Assembly (NCBI GenBank): GCA_963789265.1
Contig: CAWBKB010000003.1
Coordinates: 864,001 to 928,000 of the forward strand
Source: an uncultured delta proteobacterium
Lineage (GTDB): Bacteria > Desulfobacterota > Desulfomonilia > Desulfomonilales > Desulfomonilaceae
Length of the DNA stretch: 64,000 bases
Direction of reading: 5' to 3'
This document shows, piece by piece, positions 3,242 through 44,723 of this stretch; within the stretch, counting starts at the first letter, position 1, and each line of letters starts with the position of its first letter. Both the position numbers and the translations under genes were made by a program. The notes beneath the pieces were generated by a model that was not told the origin of the DNA, searched no databases, and saw only the letters and a program-made list of their open reading frames with translations.

Positions 3242-3425
3242 CCGGGCCGATGACCGTCATTGTCATTGCCTAGGTTTTGGTCCGCTCGCCGGGCCGGCCT
3301 TGCAAATGCAGGAGTTGCCGTTTTGAACCCGTTTCTGAAAACCGCCACGCCCTGAGCCCAACAGCGACCGCTGCAAAGCGATACAGACAAACTTGAAAGA
3401 GCTTCAGTAAGGCGGAGGGCAAACC

Positions 3426-3645
3426 ATGATTGAGCCACACGAGGGCCAGGTAATCATCTACCGCGACGGAGCCCTCAAGCTTCAGGTCCGACTCGATGCT
3501 CAGACGGTGTGGCTTACTCAGGCTGGCATGGCCGAGTTGTTTCAGACCTCGCCGCAAAACATAACTATTCATATTAAGAGCATTTATGCGGACCGAGAAC
3601 AGGATGAGACAGCAACTTGTAAAGATTACTTACAAGTTCGCACCA
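3426..3645 (+). pseudogene. N-terminal fragment of RhuM/virulence-family protein
   Basis: GQVIIY...LQVRL..TVWLTQ..MAELFQTS.QNIT.HIK.IY...E....[10 protein letters not shown] matches RhuM N-terminus; similarity stops at ~3645. Confidence 0.8.
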
Positions 3646-4180
3646 GAGACGCATCATCTATGACAAGGCCCGTATGGTGGACTTCGAGGAGCCGGATAAC
3701 AACGACTGGCTGGCGGTCAACCAGTTCACGGTTGTTGAAGGCCAGCACAGCCGCCGAGCAGACATCGTCGTCTTTCTCAACGGTCTGCCTCTGGCTGTCA
3801 TCGAACTCAAGAATCCGGCCGATGAGAATGCTACTATCTGGACGGCGTTCAACCAACTCGAGACCTACAAGTAACAAATCCAATCGCTATTCTCCTTCAA
3901 TGAACTGCTGGTTGTTTCTGACGGGTTGGAGGCTCGTATCGGGTCAGTGACAGCAGGCCAGGAGTGGTTCCTGCCTTGGTGTACCATTGAGGGCGAAGAA
4001 TCGGCTCCCGCTTCAATGCCACAATTGGAGGTGCTTCTCAGAGGAGTCTTTGAGAAGAAGCGACTACTGAATTTCCTTCGCCATTTCATTGTCTTTGAAG
4101 AAGAAAAAGGGAGAGGACTGGTCAAGAAGCTCGCAGGATATCACCAGTTCCATGCTGTAGGACAGGCGGTCAAGGAGACC
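3646..4180 (+). pseudogene. hsdR: Internal fragment of type I restriction subunit HsdR with in-frame stop (TAA 3872-3874)
   Basis: [65 protein letters not shown] motifs; no native start and truncated before the helicase domain. Confidence 0.85.
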
Positions 4181-4644
4181 TTCAGCTTCACAAGATCCTT
4201 CTTCTTCTGTAGCCAGTCTCTTCCCCCCCTCAATGACTTGGCATAGGGGATAGGGCTGTCCGAAAGGATTCCTGCTAAGTCGGCGAGAGGTTTCTTCAGG
4301 CCTTTCCAGAGTCGTTGATCAGTGCCCAGCACAGCTTCTAGTTGATCGAAGAATTGTCTGAGCAAGTCTTCATGACCAGAGAACCACCAGGGATTGAACC
4401 GAACGACAGTCGGCTGATCCATCACGGGCATGTAGTATAGGTAGTGAGTGATAAAATTGATCAAGGTCGTCTTGCCGGTACCCCATGGACCATGAATGCC
4501 CAGAACTAGACCCTCTGTAGGGGTCATTCGGTAAATGGCTTCTGCAACAGACTTTGCGAACGGAGCATATCCGAAACGATCCCGGGATTCAGGATGTGTC
4601 GCAGCCTTGTCGCTGAAAAGCATGTGGAATCTCGGCGTAGGCAT
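4181..4644 (-). pseudogene. N-terminal fragment of KAP-family P-loop NTPase
   Basis: DRFGYAPFA, VLGIHGPWGTGKTTLIN Walker A, VRFNPWWFSGHEDLL; ends abruptly against the HsdR fragment before Walker B. Confidence 0.85.
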
Positions 4645-4767
4645 ATATCACACCACATGGTCGGTTCGGGTCCCCGAAGGGAAGATGAACCTCAGGTAGC
4701 GAACTCCTGCGTAAGCGGAGGCTCAATCATTCGGGTTCTTGATCATGCGCATGCCCGAAGTTCTGTG

Positions 4768-5124
4768 TCAGCGGTCTGGAGAGATGTGATACACTCTCAG
4801 CATCTCATCCCCATAATGGTTGATCACTTTCACAGCAATCTTGCCTGTCTGCGGTCGCTTGAAGGGGCGGCTCTTGGTTCGGTAGAGCTGATCCCAGGCG
4901 TCTTCGTTGATTTCTGCTTTGAGTGCTTTAGAGAGTTTTTCGTATGGTCGGTCAGCGCCGGTAAAATAAGCATGGCGCACAAAGAAGCTCTCACCGTTGT
5001 AGTTCGTGTCGATGAACCAGCAGGCGATGTCGTCAGTAATCCCTTCCTCGGAGAAGCGGAAATGACGAGCGGGTTCCTTGTAAGGAGAGTTGATTACGGG
5101 ATTTTCAATGATTACCTGTTTCAC
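4768..5124 (-). pseudogene. Chimeric remnant: N-terminus of a type III-like restriction endonuclease fused in frame to the C-terminus of its DNA methyltransferase
   Basis: MKQVIIENPVINSPY.EP.RHF resembles Res N-terminus; DDIACWFIDTNYNGESFFVRHAYF...GKIAVKVINHYGDE resembles methyltransferase C-terminus; only 118 aa in total. Confidence 0.75.
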
Positions 5125-5271
5125 CCTTTGATCCTTTCCGCAATCAGTGCGGCCGGAAAAAATTACACCAGCACAGGTTTCTAAGACCAGGAAAATCCTC
5201 GTGCGCTAAAGGTTTTCAGGCTGCTCGGGTGGGTTCCTCATCAAATCCCGGGAGTGAATCAGAACTAATTG

Positions 5272-29331: not shown

Positions 29332-30768
29332 ATGGGATTCACTCTGAGGCTTGTCGGAGTAGTCTATTGGAGCAGGAAGAAGCTTCCCAAGGAATTTGAA
29401 CCCGGTCCGGGCATCCGCGTGTTTCATGATTATGCGAAACCCATCGCTGAAGCGACCCCGAACCTCTTGATCATAACCTCGGACGATCATCGCCTGCGCA
29501 AGCAACTCACGAAGATCATTCCGCCTCGGACCCGAATCCTCGACTCCTTTGCCTTAAACGCGTTCCGTGCTCTGAAAAATGTCTCGGGCCAATTGGGGAA
29601 GACCCAAAATAAGCTGCAAAGCGTGGAATTGATCAAAGAGGTCCTCATGGCCGGTTCCGAGATCAGCATCAAGGTGATCGACGAGGACTTCAAGGTACTT
29701 GAAATCACTAACGATATTCTGGCCAGGGCCAAGATGCCCAAGCAAGACTGCATCGGCAAGTCATGCCATTGGGTCATAAATCGGTACCTGGAACCCTGTC
29801 ATGAAAAGGGGAGCAAATGCCCCGTAGTGGATGTCCTGCGAACCGGACATTCGGCCCATCACGTCCGAGAAGAAATAAGAGCCGACGGAACAGTCGGATA
29901 TTTCACAGTCAGCGCGTATCCTCTGAAAGAGGACGAACGCGGCAAAAAATGCGTCCTTGTGGTTTGGAAAGACGTCACCCGCGTAATGACGCCTGTGCTG
30001 GATCGTCAGGCCGAGAGCATCCGAAAGAATTTCTTACACTTTCTCCAGCAGGACAAGATGGTGGCCTTGGGAAAGCTGGCCGCCGCCGCGGTCCACGAAA
30101 TCAACAACCCTATTCAGGGAATTCTCACCTTTTCCAAACTCATGAGAAGCTCTCTGAATCGGGATAATCTGTCGCCGGAAGAGCTGACAAAATTCCGCCG
30201 CTATCTGGAGCTTATTGCATCCGAATCTTCGCGATGCGGACAGCTTCTCCGAAACCTTCTTTCTTTCGCTCGTCAGGGGGAACTGGAAAAAGACTTCTTT
30301 GACATTGGTGCTCTGTTAGAAGAGATTTTTCTGCTCACGGGCAACCGCATGGAACTTCAGAGCATAACTCTCAAGCGTGAAATAGCCGAACACCTTCCCC
30401 CCATGTACGGAGACCGGGACCACGTCAAGCAGGCTGTGCTGAATCTCGTTCTTAACGCCATCGAGGCTATGCCGAACGGAGGAACCATCTGCACTACGGT
30501 AAAATTGGGTCCTGATAAGGAACACATTAGTATAAGTGTGAGCGATACGGGGGGCGGAATACCCCAAAAGGTCCAGAGAAGCGTTTTCGAACCGTTCGTT
30601 ACAACCAAAGAAGACGGAAAAGGCGTGGGCCTCGGGTTGAGCGTCGTCTACGGCATCGTGGCGCAGCATGACGGCGCCATTGCGGTGGAAAGTCAAGAGG
30701 GTAAGGGAACCAGCTTCGTCCTTACTTTCCCTATCGTCAGGGAGATCTCCAAGCCCAAGGTCTCTTGA
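29332..30768 (+). CDS. PAS-domain sensor histidine kinase (true start probably further upstream)
   Basis: Cys-rich PAS (CIGKSCHW...PC.....CPV), AVHEINNP H-box, DTGGGIP, FVTTKEDGKGVGLGL; frame open upstream to 29230. Confidence 0.88.
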   Translation: MGFTLRLVGVVYWSRKKLPKEFEPGPGIRVFHDYAKPIAEATPNLLIITSDDHRLRKQLTKIIPPRTRILDSFALNAFRALKNVSGQLGKTQNKLQSVELIKEVLMAGSEISIKVIDEDFKVLEITNDILARAKMPKQDCIGKSCHWVINRYLEPCHEKGSKCPVVDVLRTGHSAHHVREEIRADGTVGYFTVSAYPLKEDERGKKCVLVVWKDVTRVMTPVLDRQAESIRKNFLHFLQQDKMVALGKLAAAAVHEINNPIQGILTFSKLMRSSLNRDNLSPEELTKFRRYLELIASESSRCGQLLRNLLSFARQGELEKDFFDIGALLEEIFLLTGNRMELQSITLKREIAEHLPPMYGDRDHVKQAVLNLVLNAIEAMPNGGTICTTVKLGPDKEHISISVSDTGGGIPQKVQRSVFEPFVTTKEDGKGVGLGLSVVYGIVAQHDGAIAVESQEGKGTSFVLTFPIVREISKPKVS

Positions 30769-30801: not shown

Positions 30802-32163
30802 ATGAGCCGCAAAAACAGATTCATGGTGGTGGATGACGAACTGATCGTAAGGGAATCTCTGGCTGCTTGGCTGGAAAAGGAAGGGGCAATCGTTGACCGC
30901 GCCGAATCGGGAGAGCAAGCGCTGGATCTAATGGAAGGCAATCTCTACGACATTCTGTTTGTGGATATAAAGATGCCCGGCATGGGCGGTTTCGGCCTTC
31001 TGGAGAAGGTGAAGAAATTCTTTCCCACGACGGTTGTTGTTATCATCACAGCTTATGGAACCGTAGAACATGCGGTTGAAGCTATGAAACTCGGGGCCAA
31101 CGATTTCCTAGTCAAACCGTTCGACCCGGAGGGGCTCGGCCTGCTCGTGACCAAACTTCTCGAACACAAAAGGCTACTCGAAGAGACGCAGTACCTCCGC
31201 GGTGAAGTCTCCCGCTGTTGGGCAGGGCCGGACGAAATCATAGGCCGATCTGCATCTATGATCCAATTGTTCGACACTATCCTGGAGATTGCAAATAGCG
31301 AATCCTCAGTACTGATCCTGGGTGAAACCGGTACGGGAAAGGAACTCATCTCCAGGGCAATCCATGCCAATAGCAAGAGAATGGGGGGGCCGTTCGTTCC
31401 CATCAACTGCGGGGCAATCCCGGAATCCCTCATGGAAAGCGAAATCTTTGGCCATGAAAAAGGGTCCTTTACCGGAGCTATCCGGCCCAAGAAAGGTTTG
31501 ATCGAAGTAGCCGAGGGCGGGACTCTCTTCCTGGACGAGGTGGGCGAAATATCCCCCAAAATGCAGGTGGACCTGCTTCGAGTTCTGCAAGATCGGTCTT
31601 TCCGCCGCGTGGGAGGCGTGGAAGCTATTAAAGCTGATTTCAGGCTCATAAGTGCTACGCATCGGGATCTTGCTCAACAGGTCGCACAGGGCTCGTTCAG
31701 GCAAGATTTCTTTTACCGTATCAACGTCATAACACTTCGGGTCCCACCTTTAAGGGAGCGAAAAGAGGACATCTCACTTCTCGCGACGTTCTTCCTTAAG
31801 CGCTTTGCTCGGGAGACCAACCGTGAGGTGGATTCTATAGGCGATGATTCCATGAAAATATTTTTGGACTACGACTGGCCGGGAAATATTCGCGAGCTGG
31901 AAAACGTTGTAGAACGCGCGGTCGTAACTTCTAAGAAAAGGGTTCTTACTGAAGAAAGTTTTGCCTACCTCAATCCCGAAAGCGCAAGCGCTGCACCCGC
32001 TTTCACTCCCCGGTCGCTTGAGGAGGCGGAGATCGCTCATATCCGACAGATTCTCGAGGAAGAGGACTGGAACATCAGCCACGCTGCGAAGGTTCTGCAA
32101 GTGGATCGGACTACCCTGCACAAGAAGATCCGCAAATATGGCCTCGAACGCTCACAGATCTAG
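30802..32163 (+). CDS. Sigma54-dependent response regulator (NtrC/AtoC family)
   Basis: Receiver, GETGTGKE, GSFTGA, LFLDEVGE, WPGNIRELEN, Fis-type HTH. Confidence 0.93.
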   Translation: MSRKNRFMVVDDELIVRESLAAWLEKEGAIVDRAESGEQALDLMEGNLYDILFVDIKMPGMGGFGLLEKVKKFFPTTVVVIITAYGTVEHAVEAMKLGANDFLVKPFDPEGLGLLVTKLLEHKRLLEETQYLRGEVSRCWAGPDEIIGRSASMIQLFDTILEIANSESSVLILGETGTGKELISRAIHANSKRMGGPFVPINCGAIPESLMESEIFGHEKGSFTGAIRPKKGLIEVAEGGTLFLDEVGEISPKMQVDLLRVLQDRSFRRVGGVEAIKADFRLISATHRDLAQQVAQGSFRQDFFYRINVITLRVPPLRERKEDISLLATFFLKRFARETNREVDSIGDDSMKIFLDYDWPGNIRELENVVERAVVTSKKRVLTEESFAYLNPESASAAPAFTPRSLEEAEIAHIRQILEEEDWNISHAAKVLQVDRTTLHKKIRKYGLERSQI

Positions 32164-32214: not shown

Positions 32215-32803
32215 GTGCCTCCATCTACATCGGCCCTAAAAGGACTTATCGCAGTCGTGCCCCTTGGAAAAGTGGGCGAGGACGTGCTGCGGGTCGTTGC
32301 GGATAGCCTTCAGGGTATATTAAGGCTGCCCATAGATATCTGGGATGCCGTGCCCATACCTGAAGATGCGTTCATGAGATCCCGCAACCAATACAACGCC
32401 ATGACCATCATCAGGTATCTTGCAGAAAATCATTCCGGAGATAATCTCAAAGTTCTCGGCATTATGGACAAAGATATTTGCAACCCCATCATTACTTATG
32501 TCTTTGGTGAAGCGTACATGGGGGGACGGGCAGCCGTCGTGTCAAGCGCACGTCTCAGCGCGACCCTGGCGGGCGAACCGGTCTCCAGGGAGCATTTCTT
32601 GGACAGGATCGTGAAGGTTGCGCTGCATGAAATCGGTCACACCTTCAACATCCCTCACTGCCACACGGGCCGATGCGTCATGCCGCGCGTCCAACAACTT
32701 GGCCGAACTGGACGACAAGCTGAATTATCTCTGCAATTATTGTGAGCTTTTCCTTGCAGATGCTCTGAAGCATGTTTTGCAAGATGAGAAGCAAAAAACT
32801 TGA
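32215..32803 (+). CDS. Archaemetzincin-like zinc metallopeptidase (M54); apparent frameshift at ~32683
   Basis: RNQY.A, YVFGEA, HEIGHTFNIPHC...CVM, then LDDK...LC..C in the 32618..32803 frame. Confidence 0.85.
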
Positions 32804-32930: not shown

Positions 32931-35711
32931 TCACCGGATACTGAGCCTCTTCATACGACTGTACAAACTGGATCGTTTCATTCCCAGCAAGTTTGCCGCG
33001 CCGTTGGGGCCGCCCACCCGGCCCCGGGTCTTTTCGAGTACGAATCTCACGTACCGGCGCTGCAATTCATCGAGAGTCGGCATATCGGCAAAGGGATTAC
33101 GAGCTGACGATCTGTTCTTGGCGGGTAAGTCCAGTGCCAACTGATTCTCGTCGGACAGAACAACTGCCCTTTCAATAACGTTTTTCAGCTCGCGTACGTT
33201 TCCCGGCCAGGGATATGCATTCAATCGTGCTTCGTCATCCCGCGTCAGCATGAGTTGCGAACGATTATGCTTGGCAGCATATCTTGTCAGGAAGTGTCGG
33301 GCCAACAGAACTATGTCGTCGACTCTCTCGCGAAGCGGAGGTAACACAATCGGGACGACGTTGAGGCGGTAAAACAGATCCTCTCGAAAGGTGCCGGCAG
33401 CAACCTCCTCAGGCAAATCGCGATTGGTTGCCGCGACGAGACGGAAATTGGAAGATATGGTTTGGGTCCCCCCAACTCGCATCAGTGTCTTCGCTTGAAG
33501 CACCCGAAGGAGCTTTACTTGTATTGATTTGGGGATTTCGCCGACTTCGTCAATGAACAGAGTACCTTGATGCGCCAGTTCCATGAGACCTTTCTTTTGC
33601 CTATCCGCACCTGTGAAAGCACCCTTTTCGTAACCGAACAGTTCGCTCTCGACTAGATTCTCCGGGATCGTGGTGGGATCCACGGTCACCAGAGCATGGT
33701 TATAGCGGCGGCTCATCTTATGAATTCTGTGCGCCAGGAGTTCTTTGCCGACTCCGGTTTCCCCCGATATAAGCACTGTGCTTTCCGAGGCCGCCACCTG
33801 ATCGACCATGACCAGGATTTTCGTCATGACAGGGCTTCTCGTGAGTATTTCTCTGCTGGCGGGCTGATCGAGATAGACCGATTTCTGGGATGCCGCCGTT
33901 TCCAGCCGAAGGCAATGGCTGTGAACATGAGCGATGTACGTGCTCAAATAGCGCGCCATGTGAATTAACTGGTCTGAGTCCAGAAAATCGAAACATCCGT
34001 CGAGATATGAATTGTCATGATAGAGTACGCCACGCGTTGCGCCCTCGACCTTGAACGGAAGACAAAGCACAGCTTTTTGCCGATAGGACGGGTTGCCGGA
34101 TGCTGCCGGACGGAGAACCTGAGGAGAATTTTCCCGATACGCCTTGAACACCAACGCGAGGTTTGATCGAAAATCCTTGGACTCCACATCGCCTTGGCTC
34201 AAATTGCATGCTGCCCGCAAGACGGGACTCGGCTGCCGGCCCGCGCGCCTGAACCAGAAGATTCCTCCCCGTTCTGCCCCAAAGTAGCGGTTCGTGGCCA
34301 CCACTGCACCAGTCAGTAATGTATCCAAATCCGCCGTGGGCATAAGTTCTTGGATGATTTCGATGAACCGAGCCAGGAACTCCCCCTGAGTTCGTGCATT
34401 CAAGGGACTGTTCGGCACGGTCACCAAATGTCGCAGGTCATCCGGATAAAGCCCCTCGTCTCTACCTGATAATTCCACCCATGCCTTTTGCGCTAGTCTG
34501 CGGGCCGCTTGATGCTCTCCTATTCTCAATTTCAAGCGGGCTATCTCCAGCCTAGTTTTGGCAAGCTGAACCGGAGCTCCCGCACGTATAAGGCAATCTT
34601 CGCTCGACTCCAGATCAGCTAAAACTTCGTCTGCCTGCGCTCCTGAGTTGGCCCTGTCCATGGCCCTTAATCGATAAGCTACTCCGCGCAGATGGATGTT
34701 TGGTTCTCGCAAGATTCTGAGAATTTCATCGTTAAAATTCATCTCGAGGATCGGTGGAAGACCGGATCGATGAAGCTCAAATAGCATTTCCGGGAAACCG
34801 GGCAATGCGTACTGCCGAATCAGACCGGCCTTCGCGCCTTCCGACACGGCCTGACACAGCAATTCTCTTCCTTCCGTAACTCGCCCTTCAATAATATGAT
34901 GGTAGGCAAGCCCTCCCCGACTGAAATAGAGAGCTAACGCGTTCTTCGTTTGGACAGCCTCTTGAAGAGCCCCTGCAAGATGATACGCAGCTTCGCTTCT
35001 CTTGGAAGCCAAGAGCAACACTATGCCCAAGGCCGCCCTGATCGTGGCGGCTAGAGATCGATCCTGTTTTTCCAGGGAAATGCGTCGGTAATAATCAAGT
35101 ATTCCTATGGCGCGGTGAAATTCCCCCATGTAAGCTGCGCAGTATCCCAACCAAAGAGGAGCTGACGGATTGCTGACCACATTGATCTTCGCACTTTCGA
35201 AGCTCCTAACTCCTCGCTCGAAATGGATTACTGCCTCAGAAAAGAGCCCCTGAACAAAATAATACAGCCCAAGGAACTCGCCGGATCTGGTCAGGATGTC
35301 TTCGTCACCGAGTTCCTCCACTTCCCGCTTGCCGTCAGCGAAAACTTCCATCGCTTCCTGACGGCGTTCGCCAAAATAGTATAATCGGCCAAGGTGGAGT
35401 TTAATAAGCGTGGCAGAACGTCGATCGCCCAAGAGATCCGCCGCGACCAATGCATTTTGTAAGAACATAGTGAGTTCGCCAAAGCCTTTCCCCATGACAA
35501 AACCGAGGTCGGATAGTTCCAAGCTGGTCGATACAAGTAGCGCATCGCTTTCAGAAGATCGCGACGCGGCGGAGAGCCGGACCAAGACCCCGAATAGACG
35601 ATTCCACGCGGCTTCCCGATCGCCGGTTTCCAGCGCCTTTTGGGCCAATTCCCGCTCCAGTCGCGATGCTTCCAGACTGTAACTGGAAGCGGGCGCAGTC
35701 GGATAATTCAT
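32931..35711 (-). CDS. Large sigma54 enhancer-binding protein (helical/TPR-like N-terminus, GAF, AAA+, HTH)
   Basis: GETGVGKE, ESELFGYEKGAFTGA, WPGNVRELKN, HTH; divergent from the catabolic operon. Confidence 0.9.
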   Translation of the reverse strand: MNYPTAPASSYSLEASRLERELAQKALETGDREAAWNRLFGVLVRLSAASRSSESDALLVSTSLELSDLGFVMGKGFGELTMFLQNALVAADLLGDRRSATLIKLHLGRLYYFGERRQEAMEVFADGKREVEELGDEDILTRSGEFLGLYYFVQGLFSEAVIHFERGVRSFESAKINVVSNPSAPLWLGYCAAYMGEFHRAIGILDYYRRISLEKQDRSLAATIRAALGIVLLLASKRSEAAYHLAGALQEAVQTKNALALYFSRGGLAYHHIIEGRVTEGRELLCQAVSEGAKAGLIRQYALPGFPEMLFELHRSGLPPILEMNFNDEILRILREPNIHLRGVAYRLRAMDRANSGAQADEVLADLESSEDCLIRAGAPVQLAKTRLEIARLKLRIGEHQAARRLAQKAWVELSGRDEGLYPDDLRHLVTVPNSPLNARTQGEFLARFIEIIQELMPTADLDTLLTGAVVATNRYFGAERGGIFWFRRAGRQPSPVLRAACNLSQGDVESKDFRSNLALVFKAYRENSPQVLRPAASGNPSYRQKAVLCLPFKVEGATRGVLYHDNSYLDGCFDFLDSDQLIHMARYLSTYIAHVHSHCLRLETAASQKSVYLDQPASREILTRSPVMTKILVMVDQVAASESTVLISGETGVGKELLAHRIHKMSRRYNHALVTVDPTTIPENLVESELFGYEKGAFTGADRQKKGLMELAHQGTLFIDEVGEIPKSIQVKLLRVLQAKTLMRVGGTQTISSNFRLVAATNRDLPEEVAAGTFREDLFYRLNVVPIVLPPLRERVDDIVLLARHFLTRYAAKHNRSQLMLTRDDEARLNAYPWPGNVRELKNVIERAVVLSDENQLALDLPAKNRSSARNPFADMPTLDELQRRYVRFVLEKTRGRVGGPNGAANLLGMKRSSLYSRMKRLSIR

Positions 35712-35806
35712 GGTTCACCTCCGCTGGAGTCATGTCTAGGGTCGTATGCTGAGGATAGCATGGAGGATAGGGGTATCCAACAAGAAATGGCGATATTTAG
35801 ACATGA

Positions 35807-35826
35807 AGTGCCGAGATATCGGCACT
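35807..35826. promoter_or_regulatory. Palindromic candidate activator site
   Basis: AGTGCCGA-gata-TCGGCACT perfect inverted repeat ~60-80 bp upstream of the sigma54 site. Confidence 0.6.
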
Positions 35827-35884
35827 GACCGGCGAAATCGAAAGTAGTGACCAAATAAATCACTAACTTACACCTGATGCATTT

Positions 35885-35900
35885 CGGCACATCTCTTGCT
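35885..35900 (+). promoter_or_regulatory. Sigma54 (-24/-12) promoter of the catabolic operon
   Basis: CGGCACATCTCTTGCT = GG-N10-GC; IHF-like AATCACTAACTTA at 35858-35870. Confidence 0.8.
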
Positions 35901-36037
35901 CTTACTTAGCCAAACAACCTTGTTGCTCTTGTCGAGGCTCTCAATCCACGAAAGAAGGTGAATAGGAAGTCAATCATTTCATTCCGCCGGCGCTGTGCAG
36001 AAAAGCAATTCCAACAAATCGAGAAACGGAGGAAATC

Positions 36038-36433
36038 ATGCCTGTGTTCAAGGACACGCAGCAGATGTATGAGGTGCTCGGAGCCCTTTGGAGCTACATG
36101 GTCAAAGAGACCGAGATTGGCTCAAAGCTAAAAGAGTACGAAATAAGCTACAAGTTCGTCCTAACTGACCCGAAGGGGTATCTGTGGGTTGGGCACGACA
36201 AGGTCCTCACCGGCGACGAAGCCAACCAGCCCGCGGTTATTACCATGGAGTTGTCCGGTGATACGACCCACAAGTTCTGGCTGAAACAGATAAGTCTACC
36301 GGTTGCATTGGCCACGAGAAAGATTAAATCCAAGGGGCCGATTCCGAAGGTGCTGAAGATGCTCCCCTTTCTCAAACCGGTCTACGAGAAGTATCCTGAT
36401 TTCTGCCGTCAATTCGGTCTCCCTACTTCGTGA
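36038..36433 (+). CDS. SCP2 (sterol carrier protein 2)-like lipid-binding protein
   Basis: MELSGDT.HKFWL...SLPVALATRKIKSKGPIPKVLK pattern; GGAGG RBS. Confidence 0.75.
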   Translation: MPVFKDTQQMYEVLGALWSYMVKETEIGSKLKEYEISYKFVLTDPKGYLWVGHDKVLTGDEANQPAVITMELSGDTTHKFWLKQISLPVALATRKIKSKGPIPKVLKMLPFLKPVYEKYPDFCRQFGLPTS

Positions 36434-36518
36434 CCGCAGGCAAATATCAAATTTCGAGACCCGGCCTCGTCCCACGCTGACGTGGATTGGTGGCGTTCTA
36501 AGAACGAGGAGATTTACT

Positions 36519-38126
36519 ATGGCTGAAAGCAAGGTGCCCGGACACATTGCTTACGACTTGGATAGCAAAGCAGAAGATCGTCCTGATTTCAATGTCGTAA
36601 CCTTCGAGAACGGAGAGTACCCGAAGGAGGCTCTTACTTACGCGGATATTGTGATCAAAGGGAGAAAAATCGCCGGGCGATTGCAGGAACTCGGTATAGG
36701 GAAAGGTGACACGTTCGCTTTGGTCATGAAAAACCACCCCGAGTTCATTTATTCGCTGTACGCGGCAACAGCCATCGGAGCTATTTTGCTCCCGATCGAT
36801 CCTCGCACCAAGGGCGACAGGCTAAATTACGTGCTGAGCGATTCCAAATCCAAAGGGATACTTTTTTCCAGTGAATTCATGGGTAGCGTGACCGAGTCGC
36901 TCGCCGCGCTTCGTAACATCCAAGTGGTCGGCGTCACTTACAAGGCGGGCGGTGACGTCCCAATGACTGATAAGTACCCTAACATGAACGAGATTCTGGC
37001 AGGGTCCGAAGTGCCGCCACCGGACCGACGCAACGACGTGCTCGATGCCCCCATCGAGATCATCTATACATCCGGAACCACGGGTGCTCCCAAGGGAGTA
37101 GTCCTTAAAGGGGCTCGCTTGGCGCTTTTCAGTCAATTGGCCGAGTTCGTGTGGCAGTACACTCCTGAGGACACGCTTTACACGGGTCTGTCGTTGGCCC
37201 ACGGAAATGCTCAAGCGGTGACCTTGATTCCTTCACTGCTGCTCTCAATTCCCTCCATTTTCAGCCGGACGTTCACTAAAAGCCGCATCTGGGATATCTG
37301 CCGCGAATACGGCTGCACGACGTTTTCCCTGCTGGGCGGAATGATGATGGCAATCTATAGCGAGCCCAAGAAACCAAACGACGGCGATAATCCGGTGCGG
37401 CTCGTGTTGAGCGCCGGTACCCCCCGGGATATTTGGGTTTCTTTTGAGAATCGCTTCAATGTCCTGATCCATGAATGGTACGGTGCCATCGAAGGAGGCT
37501 TTGCCCACAAACCGCCCCATGTCGGCCCGGTAGGATCATTCGGCAAGCCTCTTGAAGGCTTGATGGAAATGAAGGTGGTCCGAGACGACGGGACGGAATC
37601 CGAGCCGGGAGAATTGGGAGAGTTGATTTGCCGTACCATTGGCCAACCAACCGAAGTAGAATACTTGGGCAAAAGGGAAGCTTCGGAACGAAAAACACGC
37701 GGAGGATGGCTGCGGACCGGGGACAAGTGTCACAGGGACGAAAATGGCTGGTTCTTTTTTGACTATCGTGAGGGCGGTGGCCTGCGGCGATCGGGTGACT
37801 TCATTATGCCCCAGCACGTGGAAGCGGTTTTGGCGGAACATCCACAGGTGACTGATGTATGCGTGTATGGAATTCCCGCGACATCGGGTGCTCCGGGTGA
37901 AAGCGACATTGTGGCCGCGGTGGTTCCCGTGGCGAGCGGCGAGATCGACCCCGAATCGGTTTTTCGGCTTTGCATCGAAAAACTATCTGGGAACTTCGTC
38001 CCTTCCTATCTTCAGGTGGTGAACGAGATACCCAAGACTGTCTCGGAAAAGAACCTGGACCGACTCCTGAAGGAGATCTTCCAGAAACAAGGGGACAACG
38101 TTTACCGGTTCGAGGATTTTCGCTAA
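36519..38126 (+). CDS. AMP-forming acyl-CoA ligase (CaiC-like)
   Basis: YTSGTTGAPKGV, WYGAIEGG, WLRTGD, PKTVSEK. Confidence 0.88.
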   Translation: MAESKVPGHIAYDLDSKAEDRPDFNVVTFENGEYPKEALTYADIVIKGRKIAGRLQELGIGKGDTFALVMKNHPEFIYSLYAATAIGAILLPIDPRTKGDRLNYVLSDSKSKGILFSSEFMGSVTESLAALRNIQVVGVTYKAGGDVPMTDKYPNMNEILAGSEVPPPDRRNDVLDAPIEIIYTSGTTGAPKGVVLKGARLALFSQLAEFVWQYTPEDTLYTGLSLAHGNAQAVTLIPSLLLSIPSIFSRTFTKSRIWDICREYGCTTFSLLGGMMMAIYSEPKKPNDGDNPVRLVLSAGTPRDIWVSFENRFNVLIHEWYGAIEGGFAHKPPHVGPVGSFGKPLEGLMEMKVVRDDGTESEPGELGELICRTIGQPTEVEYLGKREASERKTRGGWLRTGDKCHRDENGWFFFDYREGGGLRRSGDFIMPQHVEAVLAEHPQVTDVCVYGIPATSGAPGESDIVAAVVPVASGEIDPESVFRLCIEKLSGNFVPSYLQVVNEIPKTVSEKNLDRLLKEIFQKQGDNVYRFEDFR

Positions 38127-38168
38127 GACTGCAATAGTAAAATCCGTCTCAAGCAACGAGGTGACAGT

Positions 38169-38969
38169 ATGCGCAAGTACGTCGAAGATCTCGATTTCCA
38201 TGGCGAAGAGCACGTAAGCGAATGGACGCCATGGTCTCCTCAGGACATTCGCCGAAAAAAGGGGGTGCTGGAAGCCGCTCGGATCATGCTTAACTCCGCA
38301 TTGACTGCTCCTGCTGCGGGAGGTGTTCCGCAAACAGAAGGTCATTTGGTTTACGGTCAGGAGGAAATGGAGGCAGTAGCTCGCACCGTGGAGGAGATTG
38401 CTCACAAGAATCAGAACTGGAAGGAGCCTTTCCTCTATGAAGCGGTCATGGTGCGAGATTCGGATGTTCTCGTATTGATAGGAAATACGAGATGTCATGA
38501 AACTCCTCTTGACGCAGGATGCGGCATGTGTGGCGGAGGTCTGGACTGCGGCTATTTCTACGAAAAGAAGACTCACCGTTACGGACTCGTAGATATTACC
38601 GATCGCTCTTCCACTCGAATGATTAACGGTCCTCTGTGCACGGCTCGGGTGGACGACTTGGGCTATGCCGTAGGGAGCGCCCTGTGGACGGCACACACCC
38701 TGATGGTCGATGCAAGGCCCTTTGCAAGCGCAGGAATGGCGGGCCAGAAGCTGGGATACTGCCCCAATTCCGGAATGGTCGTCGGAGTCCTGGTGGCCGC
38801 CAAGTCCAAGAATCCGTATGTGGACGTCAACGTGGACTACCACCTTATAAACATGGACAAGGTTCTGGACAACGCTCGGAAGATATACCAGACAGCCCGA
38901 ATCATCCGTGGATTCGATTACCGGAGATGGATACCCAAACCGCAGAATACTGAAGAGGAGGGCGAGTAA
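38169..38969 (+). CDS. DUF2148-like ferredoxin-motif protein, copy A
   Basis: M..SA.TAP..GG, CGMCGGGLDC, GPLC...DDLGYAVGSA, VDARP..SAG.A...LG, KNPYVD. Confidence 0.75.
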   Translation: MRKYVEDLDFHGEEHVSEWTPWSPQDIRRKKGVLEAARIMLNSALTAPAAGGVPQTEGHLVYGQEEMEAVARTVEEIAHKNQNWKEPFLYEAVMVRDSDVLVLIGNTRCHETPLDAGCGMCGGGLDCGYFYEKKTHRYGLVDITDRSSTRMINGPLCTARVDDLGYAVGSALWTAHTLMVDARPFASAGMAGQKLGYCPNSGMVVGVLVAAKSKNPYVDVNVDYHLINMDKVLDNARKIYQTARIIRGFDYRRWIPKPQNTEEEGE

Positions 38970-39835
38970 TGGGACACCTTATAGGTAGGGACTACTATCA
39001 GGACCACCTTCTGGAAGTAGCCAAAAGCATCGTGCTTGCCATCCATAAGGCGCCCCAGATCACCGGCAAGACAGTTATCGAGGCTGAGATCATCTGGGGA
39101 GAAGACTTGATGCCCATAATCGAGATCTTGGAGCCGTGGCTCCAGTAGTCCGTTACATCCAGTGGGACTACGAAACGATCAAAGGGTGCTACGAAAAGGG
39201 AGAATCGCCTGTCATTATCAACATTGGCGCCAAGGTGAATCGCTCCAATCTAGCTTGGAATTGCGGGGCCTGTGGGTTCGACACGTGCGCAGAATTCAAC
39301 GCGTACAGCAAAGACCTTGGAGGCGGAGGGCAGTTGGGTGGGCCTTGCTGCAACTGGAAGATCCTGGACTATGCCATAGCATGCGATTGGGCGTGTGCAT
39401 CCGCCTGGCAGTACAAGGTTGACAACCGGATAATGGGGTCTCTGGGGTTTGCGTTGCAGGCCTTGAATTATCTTCCTGATTCGGACGTCAAGCTCGGACT
39501 TGCACTGGGGCCGCCCAGAGAAAGTGTTTACTTCAGCAGGACCGAGGTTCGCAATGTCATGTCGTATGAGGCGGACAAGATGGACATGATAAAGAGCATT
39601 CCCACTATGTTTGCCGGCTTCCCTGGAAGCGGCAACCCCATGTACAAGACGAAACAAGACTGGTGGGCGCCTCCGGAATTTCTAAATATCGGTTATTCAG
39701 AGGACGCGATGGAAGTCCTGCAGAAAAGTCCTCTACGAACAAATCCCCGAGATCGTCGTCAAGCATGCCGACGCCGTGGCAGCCAGGTACATAACGGACG
39801 AAAAAGCTCCGTCAGAGGAACAATCCGACCAGTAG
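38969..39835 (+). CDS. DUF2148-like ferredoxin-motif protein, copy B; two apparent frameshifts (~39134, ~39727)
   Basis: ATG overlaps copy A stop (TAATG); KAPQITG, NCGACGFDTCAEF, GPCC...D..IA...A, VDNRIMGS.G; corrected frame ends at TAG 39835 before the next RBS. Confidence 0.72.
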
Positions 39836-39850
39836 TAAGGGAGGTCAACG

Positions 39851-41093
39851 ATGGATTTCTTGGATCTGGATTTCAACTTGTCCGAAGAGGACTTAGCGTT
39901 GAAAAAGGCGGCAAACCGGTTCGCCAGGGAAGTCATGCGACCGGTTTCCGTGCAACTGGACGCCATGACCCCCGAGGAGGTTATCGCTCCCGAATCCCCT
40001 CTGTGGGATTTCATGAAAAAAGCCTACCAGCTTGGTTATCATACCATCCTGATTCCCGAATCCTATGGTGGAATGAATGTTACCCCCTTGCAGCAGTCAC
40101 TGATTATGGAGGAACTCTCTTGGGGCAGCGCCGGGCTTGCCGTTCTCCTTGCCGTGGCGGCATTTCCCGCTTTTGTAGCCAGTATGGTCCCGGAAGACGA
40201 ACTCATAGACAATATCATCGTGCCGTTCTGCGAATGCAGCGACGCCAGCATCAGAGGTTGCTGGGGGATCACCGAACCGGATCATGGTTCCGATACACTC
40301 CTCCCCGGTTACCCCAGTTTCTGTGACCCTGCCATAGGTGCCAATTGCCGCGTTAGGTTGGATGGAGACGAGTGGGTAGTCAACGGTCAGAAGTCGTCAT
40401 GGGTTTCCGGCGGCACTATTGCGACCCATTGTGCGCTTTATTGCCAGGTCGATCCTACCGCGGGACACGCTGGAGGAGGGATTTTCGTCGTGCCTTTAGA
40501 TCTGCCCGGAGTATCTAAAGGTAAACCGCTCAACAAGCTTGGACAGCGCGACCTCAATCAAGGGGAGATATTTTTCGACAACGTTCACATTCCCAAATCG
40601 TATATGATTGCACCTCCGGAAGCCTATGAAGCAATGTTGGAAACAACTCTGTCAACTACAACGGCACTTATGGGAGGTACTCGGCACCGGTATCGCCAGA
40701 GCTGCGTTCGACGAGGCGCTGACGTATGCCAAGGAACGGGTGCAGGGAGGAAAGCGGCTCATAGAATACACACACGTGAGAATGACTCTGTTTCACATGC
40801 TGAGGAGGGTCGAAGCCAGCCGTATGATGAGCAGGGCCGCCTATCAATACAACCAAAATACATCGACTCCGGCTGAAGAATACTCGGTCATGGCCAAGAT
40901 TCAAGGCACTGAAGCAGCCTTCCAGAACACTCATGAGGCGATACAGCTCTTTGGTGGCAACGGTATGGCAAAGGAATATCTCATCGAGAAACTATTCAGA
41001 GATGCACGGGCCACACTGATCGAAGACGGTTCCAACCAAACATTGGCTATCGCGGCAGGGCATAAAATCATCGAAACGTATCCGCGATCCTGA
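39851..41093 (+). CDS. Acyl-CoA dehydrogenase; apparent frameshift at ~40675
   Basis: ITEPDHGSD, VNGQKSWVS, KLGQR...GEIFFDNV; YAKERVQGGK, AIQLFGGNG, EKLFRDAR in the 40608 frame. Confidence 0.9.
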
Positions 41094-41142
41094 TTCGGGC
41101 AAACTAGACGAAATTGTGGATAAGATTTTCAGGAGAAACCGC

Positions 41143-42381
41143 ATGCGAGATGTTTATGTGATCGGGGTCGGCATGTTCCGGTTCGGCAAGTACTTGGAAC
41201 GCACGATGAAGGATATGGCCGCAGAGGCAGTCAATCTTGTAATCAAGGATGCTGACATTGAAAAGAAGGACCTTCAGTTTGCGTACGTGTCGAACAGCTA
41301 CTGGGGATTGTTCGAGGGTCAGCATTCCATCAAAGGTCAAGTTCTCTTATTCCCTCTCGGCATCCAAAAGATACCCATCGCAAACGTGGAGAACGCCTGC
41401 GCCGGGGGATCCACAGCTTTCCACATGGCTTGGATGAGCGTCGCATCCGGCCTGTATGATGTCGGATTGGCCCTTGGTGTGGAAAAATTGGCAAATGCCG
41501 ATAAGCAGCTTTCCCTCAAATCCTTCATGAGCAGTATGGACGTCTTGAATTTTGGTAACCAGGTCACGACCATGTTGTCCGCGGTGCAAGGTCTTGCTGT
41601 TCAGCCTCCTCCGGAACAGCAAGCTGCCGGCCAAGGCCGCAGCATATTTATGGACATGTACGCTGCAGGGGCTCGATGGCACATGTCTAAATATGGGTCT
41701 ACTCAAAGACAGCTTGCAGTCATCTCCGCGAAGAATCATTTTCACGGCTCCTTGAATCTCCTGGCTCAGATTCAGAAAGATATGACCGTTGCAGAGGTAT
41801 TGGCTGACAAGCCGATATCCTACCCCCTAACACGCCCTATGTGCGCTCCCGTAGGCGATGGAGCCACGTCCGCCATCTTGTGCTCTGCGGATTACCTGAA
41901 AAAGCTCCCAAATGCGAGACCCGTACGTGTACGGGCGTCGGTTCTCGGTTCGGGAACCGACCGGGGACTTGAAGGCGAGGACATAGGTAAAAGGGTTTCC
42001 CGCAAAGCTTACGAGATTGCAGGAGTAGGCCCCGAAGACATCAATGTGGCTGAATTACACGATGCAACGGCCTACGGTGAACTTCATCAGACCGAAACCC
42101 TCGGCTTTTGCAATGAAGGCGAAGGAGGGCTCTTAGCGGAATCTGGGGCCACAAAGCTTGGAGGAAGGCTTCCGATCAACACGAGTGGCGGCTTGGAGTC
42201 GAGGGGCCATCCCATCGGGGCTTCGGGGCTGGCCCAGATTCATGAGATCGTCACCCAGCTTCGTGGAGAAGCGGGCAAACGCCAAGTGGAACGAGCCTGT
42301 TTAGGACTAACGGAAAATGGTGGCGGCACACTCGGGTTTGAGGAAGCTTCAATGACAATTCACATTTTAGAGAAGGCGTGA
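41143..42381 (+). CDS. SCP2-type (SCP-x-like) thiolase
   Basis: NVENACAGGSTA, ELHDATAYGE, SRGHPIGASG, ENGGG. Confidence 0.88.
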   Translation: MRDVYVIGVGMFRFGKYLERTMKDMAAEAVNLVIKDADIEKKDLQFAYVSNSYWGLFEGQHSIKGQVLLFPLGIQKIPIANVENACAGGSTAFHMAWMSVASGLYDVGLALGVEKLANADKQLSLKSFMSSMDVLNFGNQVTTMLSAVQGLAVQPPPEQQAAGQGRSIFMDMYAAGARWHMSKYGSTQRQLAVISAKNHFHGSLNLLAQIQKDMTVAEVLADKPISYPLTRPMCAPVGDGATSAILCSADYLKKLPNARPVRVRASVLGSGTDRGLEGEDIGKRVSRKAYEIAGVGPEDINVAELHDATAYGELHQTETLGFCNEGEGGLLAESGATKLGGRLPINTSGGLESRGHPIGASGLAQIHEIVTQLRGEAGKRQVERACLGLTENGGGTLGFEEASMTIHILEKA

Positions 42382-42571
42382 AATCCTTCGCGAAGATTAC
42401 AAACCCTTCTTAAGTAAGGATTGAGGTCTCACAGGCCCCGTGATCCCTCTCTGCAATTACTAGCAATATGGCCTTTTAGAGTGGTCCCCGGAAAGCAATC
42501 ACGGAAAAGGATAACGCCTTTAGAGTTTCTGGTTCCCATGCTCCTACCGGTTGTCAGCGACGCGAGGAAAT

Positions 42572-42617
42572 GTAGGGGCGAATGCCATTCGCCCGGGCGA
42601 CCACCGGTCGCCCCTAC
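42572..42617. repeat. GTAG-type REP doublet
   Basis: GTAGGGGCGAATGCCATTCGCCC + GGGCGACCACCGGTCGCCCCTAC. Confidence 0.7.
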
Positions 42618-42803
42618 CATCCCTCGATGGACGCCCGGTAATGGTTTTGTCCCCGCAAATCGGACAAAATTTTTGACATTTGCTATAGCTCTTCACAGTC
42701 CGTCATTACCTTCAAAAACCGCCCTAGGTTCTTTCCTTCCCCCATTCTCCCCTACGCGCTCCCTGTTTGTCTCCTGCCATCTTCCTTTGATCCGTAGCTT
42801 AGC

Positions 42804-42921
42804 TGTGGTTTTGCGCTACACCTGCTGTGGTGTTTTACAACAGGCATTAAGATCTCATTATATCCCATAGATATACGTACCAGACGAATTTGACCACACC
42901 GTAGTGTGGTGTTTCACCATG
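42804..42921 (+). promoter_or_regulatory. Three candidate upstream activator sites (TGT-N11-ACA type)
   Basis: TGTGGTTTTGCGCTACA (42804), TGTGGTGTTTTACAACA (42826, 22 bp later), TGTGGTGTTTCACCATG (42905, imperfect). Confidence 0.6.
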
Positions 42922-43000
42922 CCAACACTCCCTAAGTGCGAAACGGTGGACTCATCTATTATCATGTAATTAGCCATACATAGGTGCCAGACACCGGACC

Positions 43001-43016
43001 TGGCACGAATGATGCT
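43001..43016 (+). promoter_or_regulatory. Sigma54 (-24/-12) promoter
   Basis: TGGCACGAATGATGCT = GG-N10-GC; IHF-like TATCATGTAATTA at 42960-42972. Confidence 0.75.
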
Positions 43017-43102
43017 TTACTAATCGACGACAGATGGAAATCACGGGAAAGCAAACCCGTCAGACTGTTACCAACATCTTCTCAAGCAAAAGGAGGCCCG
43101 TC

Positions 43103-43312
43103 ATGGCAACCGCGCAAGTTGAAAGGATATTCGAACCGGCGGCGGAACAACAGCACTGTGTTCACGCCCACACAGGCAAGGCCCCCCGGACTAAAATGTG
43201 CGCCCAAAACTATGAATGCGGAACCTGCCCTTTTGATCAGATGCTCGACGATGTAGTTCACAGTCGCCAGGATAGCCCCAAACTTCGAGAAATATCGGTT
43301 AAGGCTGCTTGA
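43103..43312 (+). CDS. Small stand-alone Cys-rich domain protein (69 aa)
   Basis: AGGAGG RBS; CVHAHTGKAPRTKMCAQNYECGTCPFDQMLDD closely matches a domain of the next gene. Confidence 0.75.
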   Translation: MATAQVERIFEPAAEQQHCVHAHTGKAPRTKMCAQNYECGTCPFDQMLDDVVHSRQDSPKLREISVKAA

Positions 43313-43479
43313 GGCCCGGCTGCGGAGGCAACTCCTGCTCCGACCGGCCGTTACAGCCCAACGGTTCAATTCCACTGGTCCGATTACGCCTGGCTACGGT
43401 ATTGAAAGCGTTTGACAGCAGATTGTGGACAAAATAGACGAATCAAACCGACAGAGAATACCCTCAAAGGAGGCTACCA

Positions 43480-44376
43480 ATGGCAACAATAGACAAAAAG
43501 AGAAACGTGCCCACCGGGTTCAACTTCTCCGAAAAGGAGTGCATCTGGATGCGGGCTAAGGTCGTGCCCACCAAGTATTGCGACAATGCGTTCGACTGCA
43601 CTACCTGTGCTTTCGACAAAGGCATGGCCCGCAAGATGTCCCTGGAATCCCATGAGGCCGGGTGGGATACGAAAATGTTCGATCTGCCGGTTCAGGATCA
43701 GCGTTGTCGCCATGCTCTCACGGGACGTGCGCCTCAAAACAAGATGTGCGCACGCAACTACGAATGCGGAGACTGTCCGTACGATCAAATGCTGGATGAC
43801 ATGATACAGGTGGACCACACTCTTTTCGGGCCGCCGCAGTATCTGAACGCGCATGGTTTTCTTGTTCCCCGGGACTACTACATTCACAAGGGCCACGGTT
43901 GGGCCCGGCTGGAATACGGCGGCCGCGTGCGTGTGGGATTGGACGATTTCGGAAACCGGCTTGTCGGCAAGGTGGACAAATTTCGGCTTCCGGCGCTGGG
44001 GACTCGTTTTAAAACCGGCGAAGAATCATTCATTCTTCAAAGGGAAGGCAACGAAGCCGGGATAAGGGCCCCGCTTCAGGGAGTGGTCACGGCGGTCAAT
44101 CAGAAGCTCTTGGATCAGCCCCAGTGCGCAAACGCGGATCCGTACAGTTCAGGCTGGGTGATGCTGGTGGATCCTCTTGAGCTGAAACCCGATCTCAAGG
44201 AACTTTGCTTCGGAGTTGACAGCGTGAAGTTCATAGAAGCGGAAGCTGAGCGTCTGCTCTCCATGATTACCGACGACCCGACTGCCGCGGCGGCCACAGG
44301 TGGTGAGCCAATAGCCGACGTATACGGGGCGTTTAGAGAGATAGGCTGGGATCGGCTGGTCAGAGGTTTTATCTAA
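43480..44376 (+). CDS. GcvH-like protein with two N-terminal Cys-rich domains, lacking the lipoyl-lysine
   Basis: YYIHKGHGWAR, VRVGLDDFG..LVG, APLQGVVTAVN, NADPYSSGW; lipoyl site reads LQREGNEA instead of ESVKA. Confidence 0.82.
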   Translation: MATIDKKRNVPTGFNFSEKECIWMRAKVVPTKYCDNAFDCTTCAFDKGMARKMSLESHEAGWDTKMFDLPVQDQRCRHALTGRAPQNKMCARNYECGDCPYDQMLDDMIQVDHTLFGPPQYLNAHGFLVPRDYYIHKGHGWARLEYGGRVRVGLDDFGNRLVGKVDKFRLPALGTRFKTGEESFILQREGNEAGIRAPLQGVVTAVNQKLLDQPQCANADPYSSGWVMLVDPLELKPDLKELCFGVDSVKFIEAEAERLLSMITDDPTAAAATGGEPIADVYGAFREIGWDRLVRGFI

Positions 44377-44530: not shown

Positions 44531-44723
44531 ACTCCGATCCAATAGGCGCTAACTTAATGCGGCGTCTTGATTCCGCAAGGCCCCCTCACCCTGCCCTCTC
44601 CCGCCACGGGGAGAGGCTTTTCTTGATCCCCTCCCTTGATGGGAGGGGGAAGGGGGAGGGTGATAAGGCATTGAAATTACCAGGCAGCACGACAATAAGT
44701 TAGCGTCTATGGCACTCCGATCC
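44531..44723. mobile_element. MITE with 15-bp terminal inverted repeats
   Basis: ATAGGCGCTAACTTA (44542-44556) / TAAGTTAGCGTCTAT (44696-44710), flanked by ACTCCGATCC direct repeats; internal CCCTCACCC..CCCTCTCCC / GGGAGGGTGA palindromes. Confidence 0.7.

Follow-up and report, generated by a model that had tools for sequence, protein, structure and literature searches.

The locus described here raises the question of what a protein with the fold of the glycine cleavage H protein (GcvH) does when the lysine that carries lipoate is missing and cysteine-rich modules precede the fold. The DNA analyzed, hereafter the window, is a 64-kb stretch from an uncultured delta proteobacterium of the phylum Desulfobacterota, and the locus consists of two open reading frames (ORFs) on its + strand, 43103..43312, encoding 69 amino acids (aa), followed by 43480..44376, encoding 298 aa and preceded by an AGGAGG ribosome-binding site as well. 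The larger protein, a type that we call GcvH-X, contains two diverged copies of a four-cysteine (Cys4) module of about 40 aa ahead of a GcvH fold that lacks the lipoyl site; a third, free-standing copy of the module is encoded by the small gene. An earlier note on this DNA had described these elements, and all the sequence features that it quoted were found in place. The answer we propose, with a probability of about 0.45, is that the two genes form a sigma-54-dependent operon that is the output of a kinase, regulator and archaemetzincin (peptidase M54) cassette, and that their products are a metal-cluster adaptor for anaerobic redox machinery. The coding features are as follows:

43103..43312, + strand: 69-aa Cys4(+His) module protein; ATG at 43103, with AGGAGG at 43091-97, six bases upstream.
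43480..44376, + strand: 298-aa GcvH-X protein; in order, Cys4 modules 1 and 2, a GcvH fold without the lipoyl site, and a C-terminal helical extension.
43519..43629, + strand: Cys4 module 1, residues 14-50; C21, W23, C34, C40, C43.
43687..43809, + strand: Cys4 module 2, residues 70-110; C76-R77-H78, C90, C96, C99, D102-Q103.
43852..44214, + strand: GcvH fold, about residues 125-245; the hairpin at 44023-44067 is ESFILQREGNEAGIR, with G190 at the lipoyl Lys position.
44215..44373, + strand: conserved C-terminal helical extension, consensus AATGGEPIxDVYGxFxExGWDxLVxxF; predicted local distance difference test score (pLDDT) 71-94.

The fold assignment is well supported by both sequence and structure comparisons. 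Pfam GCV_H matched residues 135-251 of the 298-aa protein with an E value of 1e-16, above the family cut-off, and the AlphaFold model, built with 53 sequences, had a mean pLDDT of 75 and values >90 over most of the H domain. When superposed on the solved GcvH structures from Thermus and E. coli (1ONL, 3A8I, 3AB9), the model gave template-modelling (TM) scores of 0.90-0.93, root-mean-square deviations of 1.2-1.7 A and a Foldseek E value of 2e-11. The scores of the 298-aa protein did not reach the NCBIfam equivalog cut-offs for gcvH (TIGR00527, 51.8 bits vs. 115.85; NF002270, 64 vs. 117). The earlier note had stated, on the basis of the stretch LQREGNEA, that the lipoylated Lys is missing, and had proposed an alignment at this site as a check. 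In the HMMER alignment, the lipoyl Lys of 3IFT and 1ONL, a residue that in GcvH stands at the hairpin tip within an E-S-V-K-A context, fell opposite G190, and the model strands 182-188 and 191-196 placed E189-G190 at the hairpin turn. No Lys is found between residues 179 and 208, so the lipoylation hairpin offers no alternative one. The same column in the 53 family members is occupied by G in 28, S in 11, D in 5, N in 4, Q in 2, and T, E and K in one each, and R188 is kept in 52 of them. The genuine gcvT-gcvH-gcvPA-gcvPB cluster of this genome is on contig C8, the only contig with GCV_T and GDC-P matches, and the four LplA-like genes are on C1, C4 and C5; neither type was found on C3, the contig of the window, and the observation that no gcvT/P or lipoate ligase gene lies nearby thus stands. 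It is therefore secure that the 298-aa protein is not a glycine-cleavage H protein, as had been claimed: the Lys is lost family-wide, the gcvH cut-offs are missed and the true gcv operon is elsewhere. The sequences further indicate that GcvH-X is probably not a lipoyl carrier. As a separate observation, further GcvH-type genes are located no more than a few kb from the LplA-like genes on C1 (about 2.368-2.373 Mb) and on C4 (about 278-281 kb), and these clusters may be sets of a lipoate-binding protein and its ligase, unrelated to GcvH-X.

The cysteine-rich part of the large protein carries the two four-Cys motifs noted earlier, CIWM..C..DCTTCAFD (Cys 21/34/40/43) and CRHALTG..C.RNYECGDCPYD (Cys 76/90/96/99), with a module spacing of C-x12/13-C-x5-C-x2-C. 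All eight Cys are strictly or almost strictly conserved in the 53 family members and in 64 proteins of differing architecture, the same holds for W23, R77-H78, K88 and D102-Q103 in the large-protein family, and a Pro directly follows the last Cys in 35/53 members. The profile search with the module, another check that had been suggested, returned 448 cluster representatives at E<=0.001, including a kinase and response regulators. Of 36 scanned module proteins of unusual length or domain position, 20 combine the module with a GCV_H domain and 10 have a REC domain and end in the tandem module (Cys2); the others are a TPR-Cys2-HisKA-HATPase kinase that bears the label Dehalococcoidia, two TPR-Cys2 proteins, and three proteins without a Pfam match. 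Pfam scans of 22 members gave nothing at or above the cut-off, and no Pfam or NCBIfam family was found for the module; the PDB sequences retrieved with its profile were at chance level (best E 0.15, RNA polymerase subunit ABC10-alpha). The Cys2 unit model (64 sequences, pLDDT 72, built without metal) found no fold match in Foldseek against the PDB at E<=0.001 or in the wide VIA-align comparison (0 of 48,161 chains at Z>=2), which, for a model of moderate confidence, is no proof of a new fold, and the ESM Atlas search returned the protein's own family only. Regarding known metal sites, there was no Fer4 match at E<=1 in the 298-aa protein and the module members, the 2x[4Fe-4S] ferredoxin motif C-x2-C-x2-C-x3-C-P is absent, each module has only one C-x2-C, where zinc ribbons and treble clefs have two such knuckles, and a zf-CHY match was weak (E 0.12, below cut-off). 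A match to rSAM_STM4011 (E 0.044) was set aside as compositional. It is plausible that the Cys4 modules bind metal, either Zn or iron-sulfur (Fe-S) clusters, with Fe-S perhaps slightly favored. The Cys4 domain, present also in kinases and response regulators, appears to be undescribed in the literature searched.

The control region and the end of the operon contain the following elements:

43001..43016, + strand: sigma-54 -24/-12 promoter TGGCACGAATGATGCT, the sole TGGCAC-N6-TGCT match in the 64-kb window.
42804..42831, + strand: distal enhancer cluster (upstream activating sequences), with overlapping inverted repeats TGTGGTTTTGCGCTACA (42804-20) and GCTACACCTGCTGTGGT (42815-31) at -197 and -186 from the -24 element.
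42893..42910, + strand: proximal enhancer site ACCACACCGTAGTGTGGT, a near-perfect palindrome at -108.
44595-44616, + strand: terminator-like hairpin, followed by a T-tract to 44626, downstream of the large ORF.

The strict -24/-12 pattern was found upstream of the gene or genes in 27 of 35 related loci, drawn from species genomes, and in 33 when the -12 element was relaxed; in the remaining two, the upstream DNA ends at a contig edge. In relatives, the enhancer half-sites TGTGGT/ACCACA are located between -170 and -210, even in Desulfobacterales loci with a protein of just ~40% identity, and L002, L004 and L016 share a site at about -107. Inverted repeats were found in 21 of 27 upstream regions at similar distances (-108 to -210), and their number, 36 sites in the 7.0 kb of these regions vs. 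12 in 364 kb of flanking DNA, is an enrichment that is partly circular, as the pattern was written after inspecting these sequences. Since the pattern was defined post hoc, the conserved positions are the stronger argument. Collectively, the sequence comparisons support a conserved sigma-54 unit with enhancer sites, and the claim of a sigma-54 promoter with three upstream sites agrees with a promoter that is unique in the window and with sites conserved in relatives. No terminator-like site was found between the two ORFs, and an attenuator considered for the 167-nt spacer was rejected, because the folding was no better than that of shuffled sequence (z 0.66) and such a site is lacking there. 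With a terminator-like site only after the large ORF and a spacer of no special folding, the 69-aa and 298-aa genes are likely co-transcribed.

A candidate source of the regulation was found further upstream in the window, in three genes:

29332..30768, + strand: PAS histidine kinase (Pfam), likely the cognate sensor; its orthologues adjoin the GcvH-X gene in relatives.
30802..32163, + strand: NtrC-type sigma-54 response regulator (REC, AAA+ and HTH_8 by Pfam), likely the activator of the 43001 promoter.
32215..32803, + strand: archaemetzincin-type (M54) Zn-protease gene, frame-shifted near 32680; archmetzin match of 132.9 bits.

This cassette stands beside the GcvH gene in 19/35 loci and in two orders, as established by Pfam scans of the neighbors in 12 of the 35 loci, chosen for diversity, and then by tblastn over all 35. 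Thirteen of the cassette loci, of the Desulfomonilaceae type, carry the cassette upstream of the GcvH gene and in its orientation; a further locus breaks off at the M54 gene, and five are Desulfobacterales loci with a convergent arrangement. In 12 loci of the Desulfomonilaceae type, a regulator orthologue 77-92% identical to that of the window immediately precedes the operon, the orthologues beside the operon in the five Desulfobacterales loci are 50-54% identical, and L027 retains just a 125-aa regulator fragment. From this arrangement, we infer that the 30802 regulator drives the 43001 promoter. The promoter and upstream sites had been noted earlier, whereas the cognate cassette 10 kb upstream and the M54 link had been overlooked. 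The M54 signature HExxHxxxxxH-C-x4-C-x-M...C-x2-C is intact in 9/9 aligned relatives; we take HExxHxxGx3Cx4CxM...CxxC to be the zinc-site signature of archaemetzincins. In the window copy, the frame shifts after HEIGHTFNIPHCHTGRCVM, which leaves the C-x2-C in the +1 frame, and its score against NF033823 is 132.9 bits, where the cut-off is 145; the frame shift may reflect a pseudogene or a long-read assembly error.

In the window, a block of about 10.3 kb (32931-42381) separates the cassette from the operon, and it looks like an insertion, because cassette and operon are contiguous in 13 relatives. The block holds a 926-aa sigma-54 activator on the - strand, a 131-aa ORF, an AMP-binding CoA ligase and two DUF2148 ferredoxin-domain proteins, and also an acyl-CoA dehydrogenase and a thiolase-like protein, which form an operon with the CoA ligase. 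The acyl-CoA dehydrogenase at 39851-41093 is likewise split into two overlapping ORFs, the second apparent frame shift of the window, with the N-terminal and middle domains in 39851..40876 and the C-terminal domain in 40608..41093.

Next, the distribution of the family was analyzed over 401 genomes of the phylum. The GcvH-X profile detected 115 genomes at E<=1e-30, M54 was detected in 149, and, in counts that ignore kinship between genomes, 105 had both genes, 242 had neither, 10 had only GcvH-X and 44 had only M54. Among the matches listed (the best 150 of each search, with 61 GcvH and 34 M54 rows beyond this limit), which make the counts lower bounds, GcvH-X and M54 share a contig and are no more than 12 kb apart in at least 31 of the 61 genomes that have the full-length form and at least 31 of the 38 that have the short form only, at median distances of 1.2 kb and 2.5 kb, respectively. 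The short form (205-255 aa) consists only of the H fold and the C-terminal extension (GG..DDVYG..P.LGW.RLV.EF), and is often found in tandem. Aligned short forms read R-x-G-x-K-A at the hairpin, with a Lys two positions past the canonical site and no indel, and at this +2 position the window family has Glu in 36/53 members. The C-terminal extension is common to the short, membrane-anchored and HdrA-fused forms and defines the GcvH-X subfamily.

Two of these forms point to redox enzymes. Membrane-anchored GcvH-X, with an N-terminal transmembrane helix, is encoded after the genes for cytochrome c3, a Fer4_11 (NrfC-like) protein and NrfD, and these operons adjoin a kinase, M54 and a sigma-54 regulator in L048, L049, L050 and L052; of nine such loci scanned, three (L045, L048, L050) have a sigma-54 promoter match directly upstream of a GcvH-X gene. 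The other form is a fusion of ~1000 aa that combines an HdrA2-like part, Fer4, MvhD (FlpD), Molydop_binding and GcvH-X (L043:4607-7522, L046:4083-7070); its genes adjoin one for an HdrA N-terminal flavoprotein, and MetF and MetV follow in L043. Two further observations were made on these relatives. The N-terminal Cys-rich unit of the soluble GcvH-X proteins in L048, L049 and L050 is of another kind (C-P-F-L..C..C..C-P), and it is doubled in L048 and L050. In addition, many membrane-anchored homologues of L050:7873-8574 bear the precomputed label PF28260.1, absent from the Pfam copy used, and a family covering part of these proteins may have been defined recently.

Because GcvH-X elsewhere partners cytochrome c3/NrfC/NrfD or ends HdrA-MvhD proteins, we propose a redox adaptor role for the operon products. 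A signal would be sensed by the PAS histidine kinase, and the NtrC-type regulator (30802), once phosphorylated, would bind the TGTGGT/ACCACA repeats at -197, -186 and -108 and open the -24/-12 promoter at 43001, so that the 69-aa Cys4 protein and the GcvH-X protein are made. The GcvH fold would be reused as a docking scaffold, each Cys4 module would hold a metal centre, and the mini-protein would add a third module to the large protein, giving a metal-cluster-bearing adaptor for NrfD- and Hdr-type anaerobic redox machinery. The co-inherited archaemetzincin would probably process these proteins or turn them over; this action on the operon products is speculative. Of the earlier claim of a redox or signalling adaptor outside glycine cleavage, the second part was established above, and the adaptor role, which fits the HdrA/MvhD fusions, the NrfCD/cytochrome c3 operons and the kinase and response-regulator modules, is plausible only.

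Several observations weigh against the redox adaptor. The cassette of the window sits ~10 kb upstream of the operon and its M54 gene is frame-shifted, and the circularity and kinship mentioned with the respective counts also have to be considered. The genome itself lacks membrane-anchored, NrfD-linked or HdrA-fused GcvH-X and has two Cys-fused copies only (E<=1e-30), no conserved Cys or cofactor site was found within the GcvH-X domain, and the Cys spacing fits no known Fe-S or zinc motif, in a module whose model is moderately confident. Finally, the presence of Cys2 at the C-terminus of response regulators and within a histidine kinase suits pure signalling at least as well, and REC-TPR-Cys2 genes follow kinase and sigma-54 regulator pairs homologous to those of the window.

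The last two points make signalling or feedback a serious rival, since the Cys2 unit occurs in kinases and regulators. The tandem Cys4 unit would then be a sensory or interaction unit, and the products would feed back on the kinase, the regulator or M54, perhaps depending on redox state or metal, instead of carrying electrons or serving a respiratory enzyme. Besides the 10 REC proteins, the kinase and the two TPR proteins among the 36 scanned, it is favored by three REC-TPR-Cys2 genes in the metagenome contigs L053, L055 and L056 (about 2470-6996), which directly follow the genes of a kinase and of a sigma-54 regulator that shares 47% identity with that of the window, with a promoter-like TGGCAT-N5-TTGA site ahead of them. 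Moreover, the operon is the sole conserved target beside the cassette, and the M54 gene is located inside the kinase/regulator operon. The GcvH-X proteins without Cys2 in cytochrome c3/NrfC/NrfD operons and HdrA-MvhD fusions argue against it, as they point to redox enzymes, and we regard pure signalling as possible, if somewhat unlikely.

The role of the mini-protein was considered separately. It contains CVHAHTG..C.QNYECGTCPFDQMLDD, with ligand candidates C19, C33, C39 and C42, and conserved positions H21, G25, P28, K31 and D45-QML-D50, and ends in ..KAA. In alignments with the large protein, it shares 57% identity with module 2 (residues 65-110; 46 aa, E 4e-20) and 30% with module 1 (residues 18-49), and the small ORF and its ribosome-binding site are kept in 24/35 related loci, in agreement with the proposal that this gene is a free copy of the second domain; it was not found in the Desulfobacterales loci among the 35. 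The 32-aa core of the small proteins is ~70% identical to module 2, and gene conversion between the two has weak support (72% identity within a locus vs. 68% between loci). The note had also suggested that the mini-protein might be a competitor, i.e., a decoy in which free module 2 displaces the intramolecular copy or titrates a partner, thus inhibiting the large protein. This would fit the 57% identity with all four Cys kept, the position as first gene of the operon, which could allow production in excess, the systematic difference between C-R-H, always found in module 2, and C-[VILN]-H, always found in small proteins, and the -AA C-terminus of 17/20 aligned small proteins. Such an end is reminiscent of C-terminal degradation tags (degrons) and could shorten the lifetime of the protein. 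The cis arrangement found elsewhere is hard to reconcile with an inhibitor: a 358-aa paralogue on contig C1 of the same genome (L041/L047), itself preceded by a TGGCACACTTAATGAA promoter and similar repeats, combines in frame a small-like module (C-I-H...CEYDQMLQD), module 1, module 2 and GcvH-X, and such a fused module is also at the N-terminus of the large protein in L018, L019 and L021. The Desulfobacterales orthologues, in addition, do without the mini-protein. The occurrence of a split form here and a fused form in the paralogue and three relatives argues that the mini-protein may act with the large protein as one assembly, and a decoy is improbable.

Another possibility is thiol-rich metal buffering or detoxification, in which the two proteins would use their 12 Cys to trap a thiophilic metal, with the kinase and regulator as sensors of metal stress. 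Cys-rich products, a dedicated two-component system and a zinc protease in the cassette are in line with this idea. The rigid 4-Cys frames with the conserved W23, R77-H78, K88 and D102-Q103 are more typical of a structural or cofactor site than of a metallothionein, no conserved metal transporter was found nearby, and buffering leaves no role for the GcvH-X domain or its redox-complex relatives, so this explanation is very improbable. That the 298-aa protein is a genuine H protein of glycine cleavage or lipoyl relay, merely mis-aligned, would agree with the GCV_H match above cut-off, the TM of 0.9 and the public name of the protein, ‘glycine cleavage system H’, and is virtually ruled out by the hairpin without Lys (1/53 relatives with one in the column), the gcvH scores under the cut-offs, the gcvT-H-PA-PB operon elsewhere and the contig without a ligase gene.

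The redox adaptor is thus the reading we prefer, and a wider statement can be attached to it, although in its full form we consider it rather unlikely: GcvH-X, the archaemetzincin and the kinase/regulator pair would be an unrecognized, phylum-wide module of the Desulfobacterota, in which the lipoyl-less H fold is an archaemetzincin client, either as its substrate or by docking to it, sensing is coupled to membrane (NrfCD/cytochrome c3) and cytoplasmic (HdrA-MvhD) electron transfer, and Cys4 is a new metal-cluster sensor or effector domain. What the data present is, it appears, a lipoyl-less variant of the known GcvH fold inside an undescribed regulatory and redox module.

This has consequences for annotation. 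The only public names for GcvH-X family proteins are ‘glycine cleavage system H’ or ‘hypothetical’, and hundreds of entries under the former name in sulfate reducers, syntrophs and relatives are mislabelled; the set comprises 575 close relatives of the Cys-fused form and 1,476 of the membrane-anchored form. Since GcvH-X proteins cannot, by our reading of the hairpin, carry lipoate, counting them as gcvH inflates pathway reconstructions, e.g., of the reductive glycine pathway. Archaemetzincins, for which no physiological substrate or role is known to us, gain a tight and testable genetic partner. The compact sigma-54 regulon, made of promoter, enhancer sites and a two-gene output, also gives a handle on NrfD- and Hdr-type accessory regulation in anaerobes.

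As for the surroundings, the operon is flanked in the window by the thiolase-like gene and nuoN. Two GC-rich near-perfect hairpins, GGGGCGAATGCCATTCGCCC and GGGCGACCACCGGTCGCCC, lie at 42560-42620 in the long spacer after the thiolase-like gene, and may be terminators or a repeat element.

Compared with GcvH, the GcvH-X protein keeps the H-x-W, G-x-D-D-F and DPY..GW motifs and the barrel-sandwich fold. Its hairpin is rebuilt as R-[ED]-x-[NH]-E-A, with the lipoyl Lys replaced (G190), the fold is extended by ~50 aa at the C-terminus and preceded by a double Cys4 unit of ~110 aa, and the gene is under predicted sigma-54 control and unlinked to gcvT/P. The Cys4 module can be set beside the WhiB-like proteins and the N-terminus of FNR, ~40-aa Cys4 Fe-S modules of irregular spacing, with C-x2-C and C-x5-C, that act in anaerobe signalling; in the present module, the order of the spacings is reversed (C-x13-C-x5-C-x2-C), and no sequence or fold similarity was detected. 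In comparison with the archaemetzincin family (peptidase M54, NF033823), the gene here is part of a kinase/sigma-54 regulator operon and is inherited together with GcvH-X. No report of a link between GcvH-X and archaemetzincins, and no description of the GcvH-X/Cys4 family, was found in the literature searched, which covered articles without their supplements. A term search of PMC4641369 found none of gcvH, ‘H protein’, M54, archaemetzincin, lipoyl and cysteine-rich; the gcv passages seen in PMC5701242 concern canonical gcv genes, and those on HdrL and MvhD seen in PMC2702500 do not mention a GcvH domain. The closest parallels, as described in the portions seen of PMC6067878 and PMC12440151, are LbpA of sHdr sulfur oxidisers and GcvH-L of Firmicutes, GcvH paralogues of redox or stress systems outside glycine cleavage, which retain the lipoyl Lys, undergo lipoylation and are accompanied by dedicated ligases. 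Unlike them, GcvH-X is without the lipoyl Lys and without a ligase gene nearby. Like both, as far as these portions allow the comparison, it is a GcvH paralogue apparently tied to systems beyond glycine cleavage, and, as LbpA is genetically tied to Hdr-like complexes, some forms of GcvH-X are tied to HdrA-MvhD.

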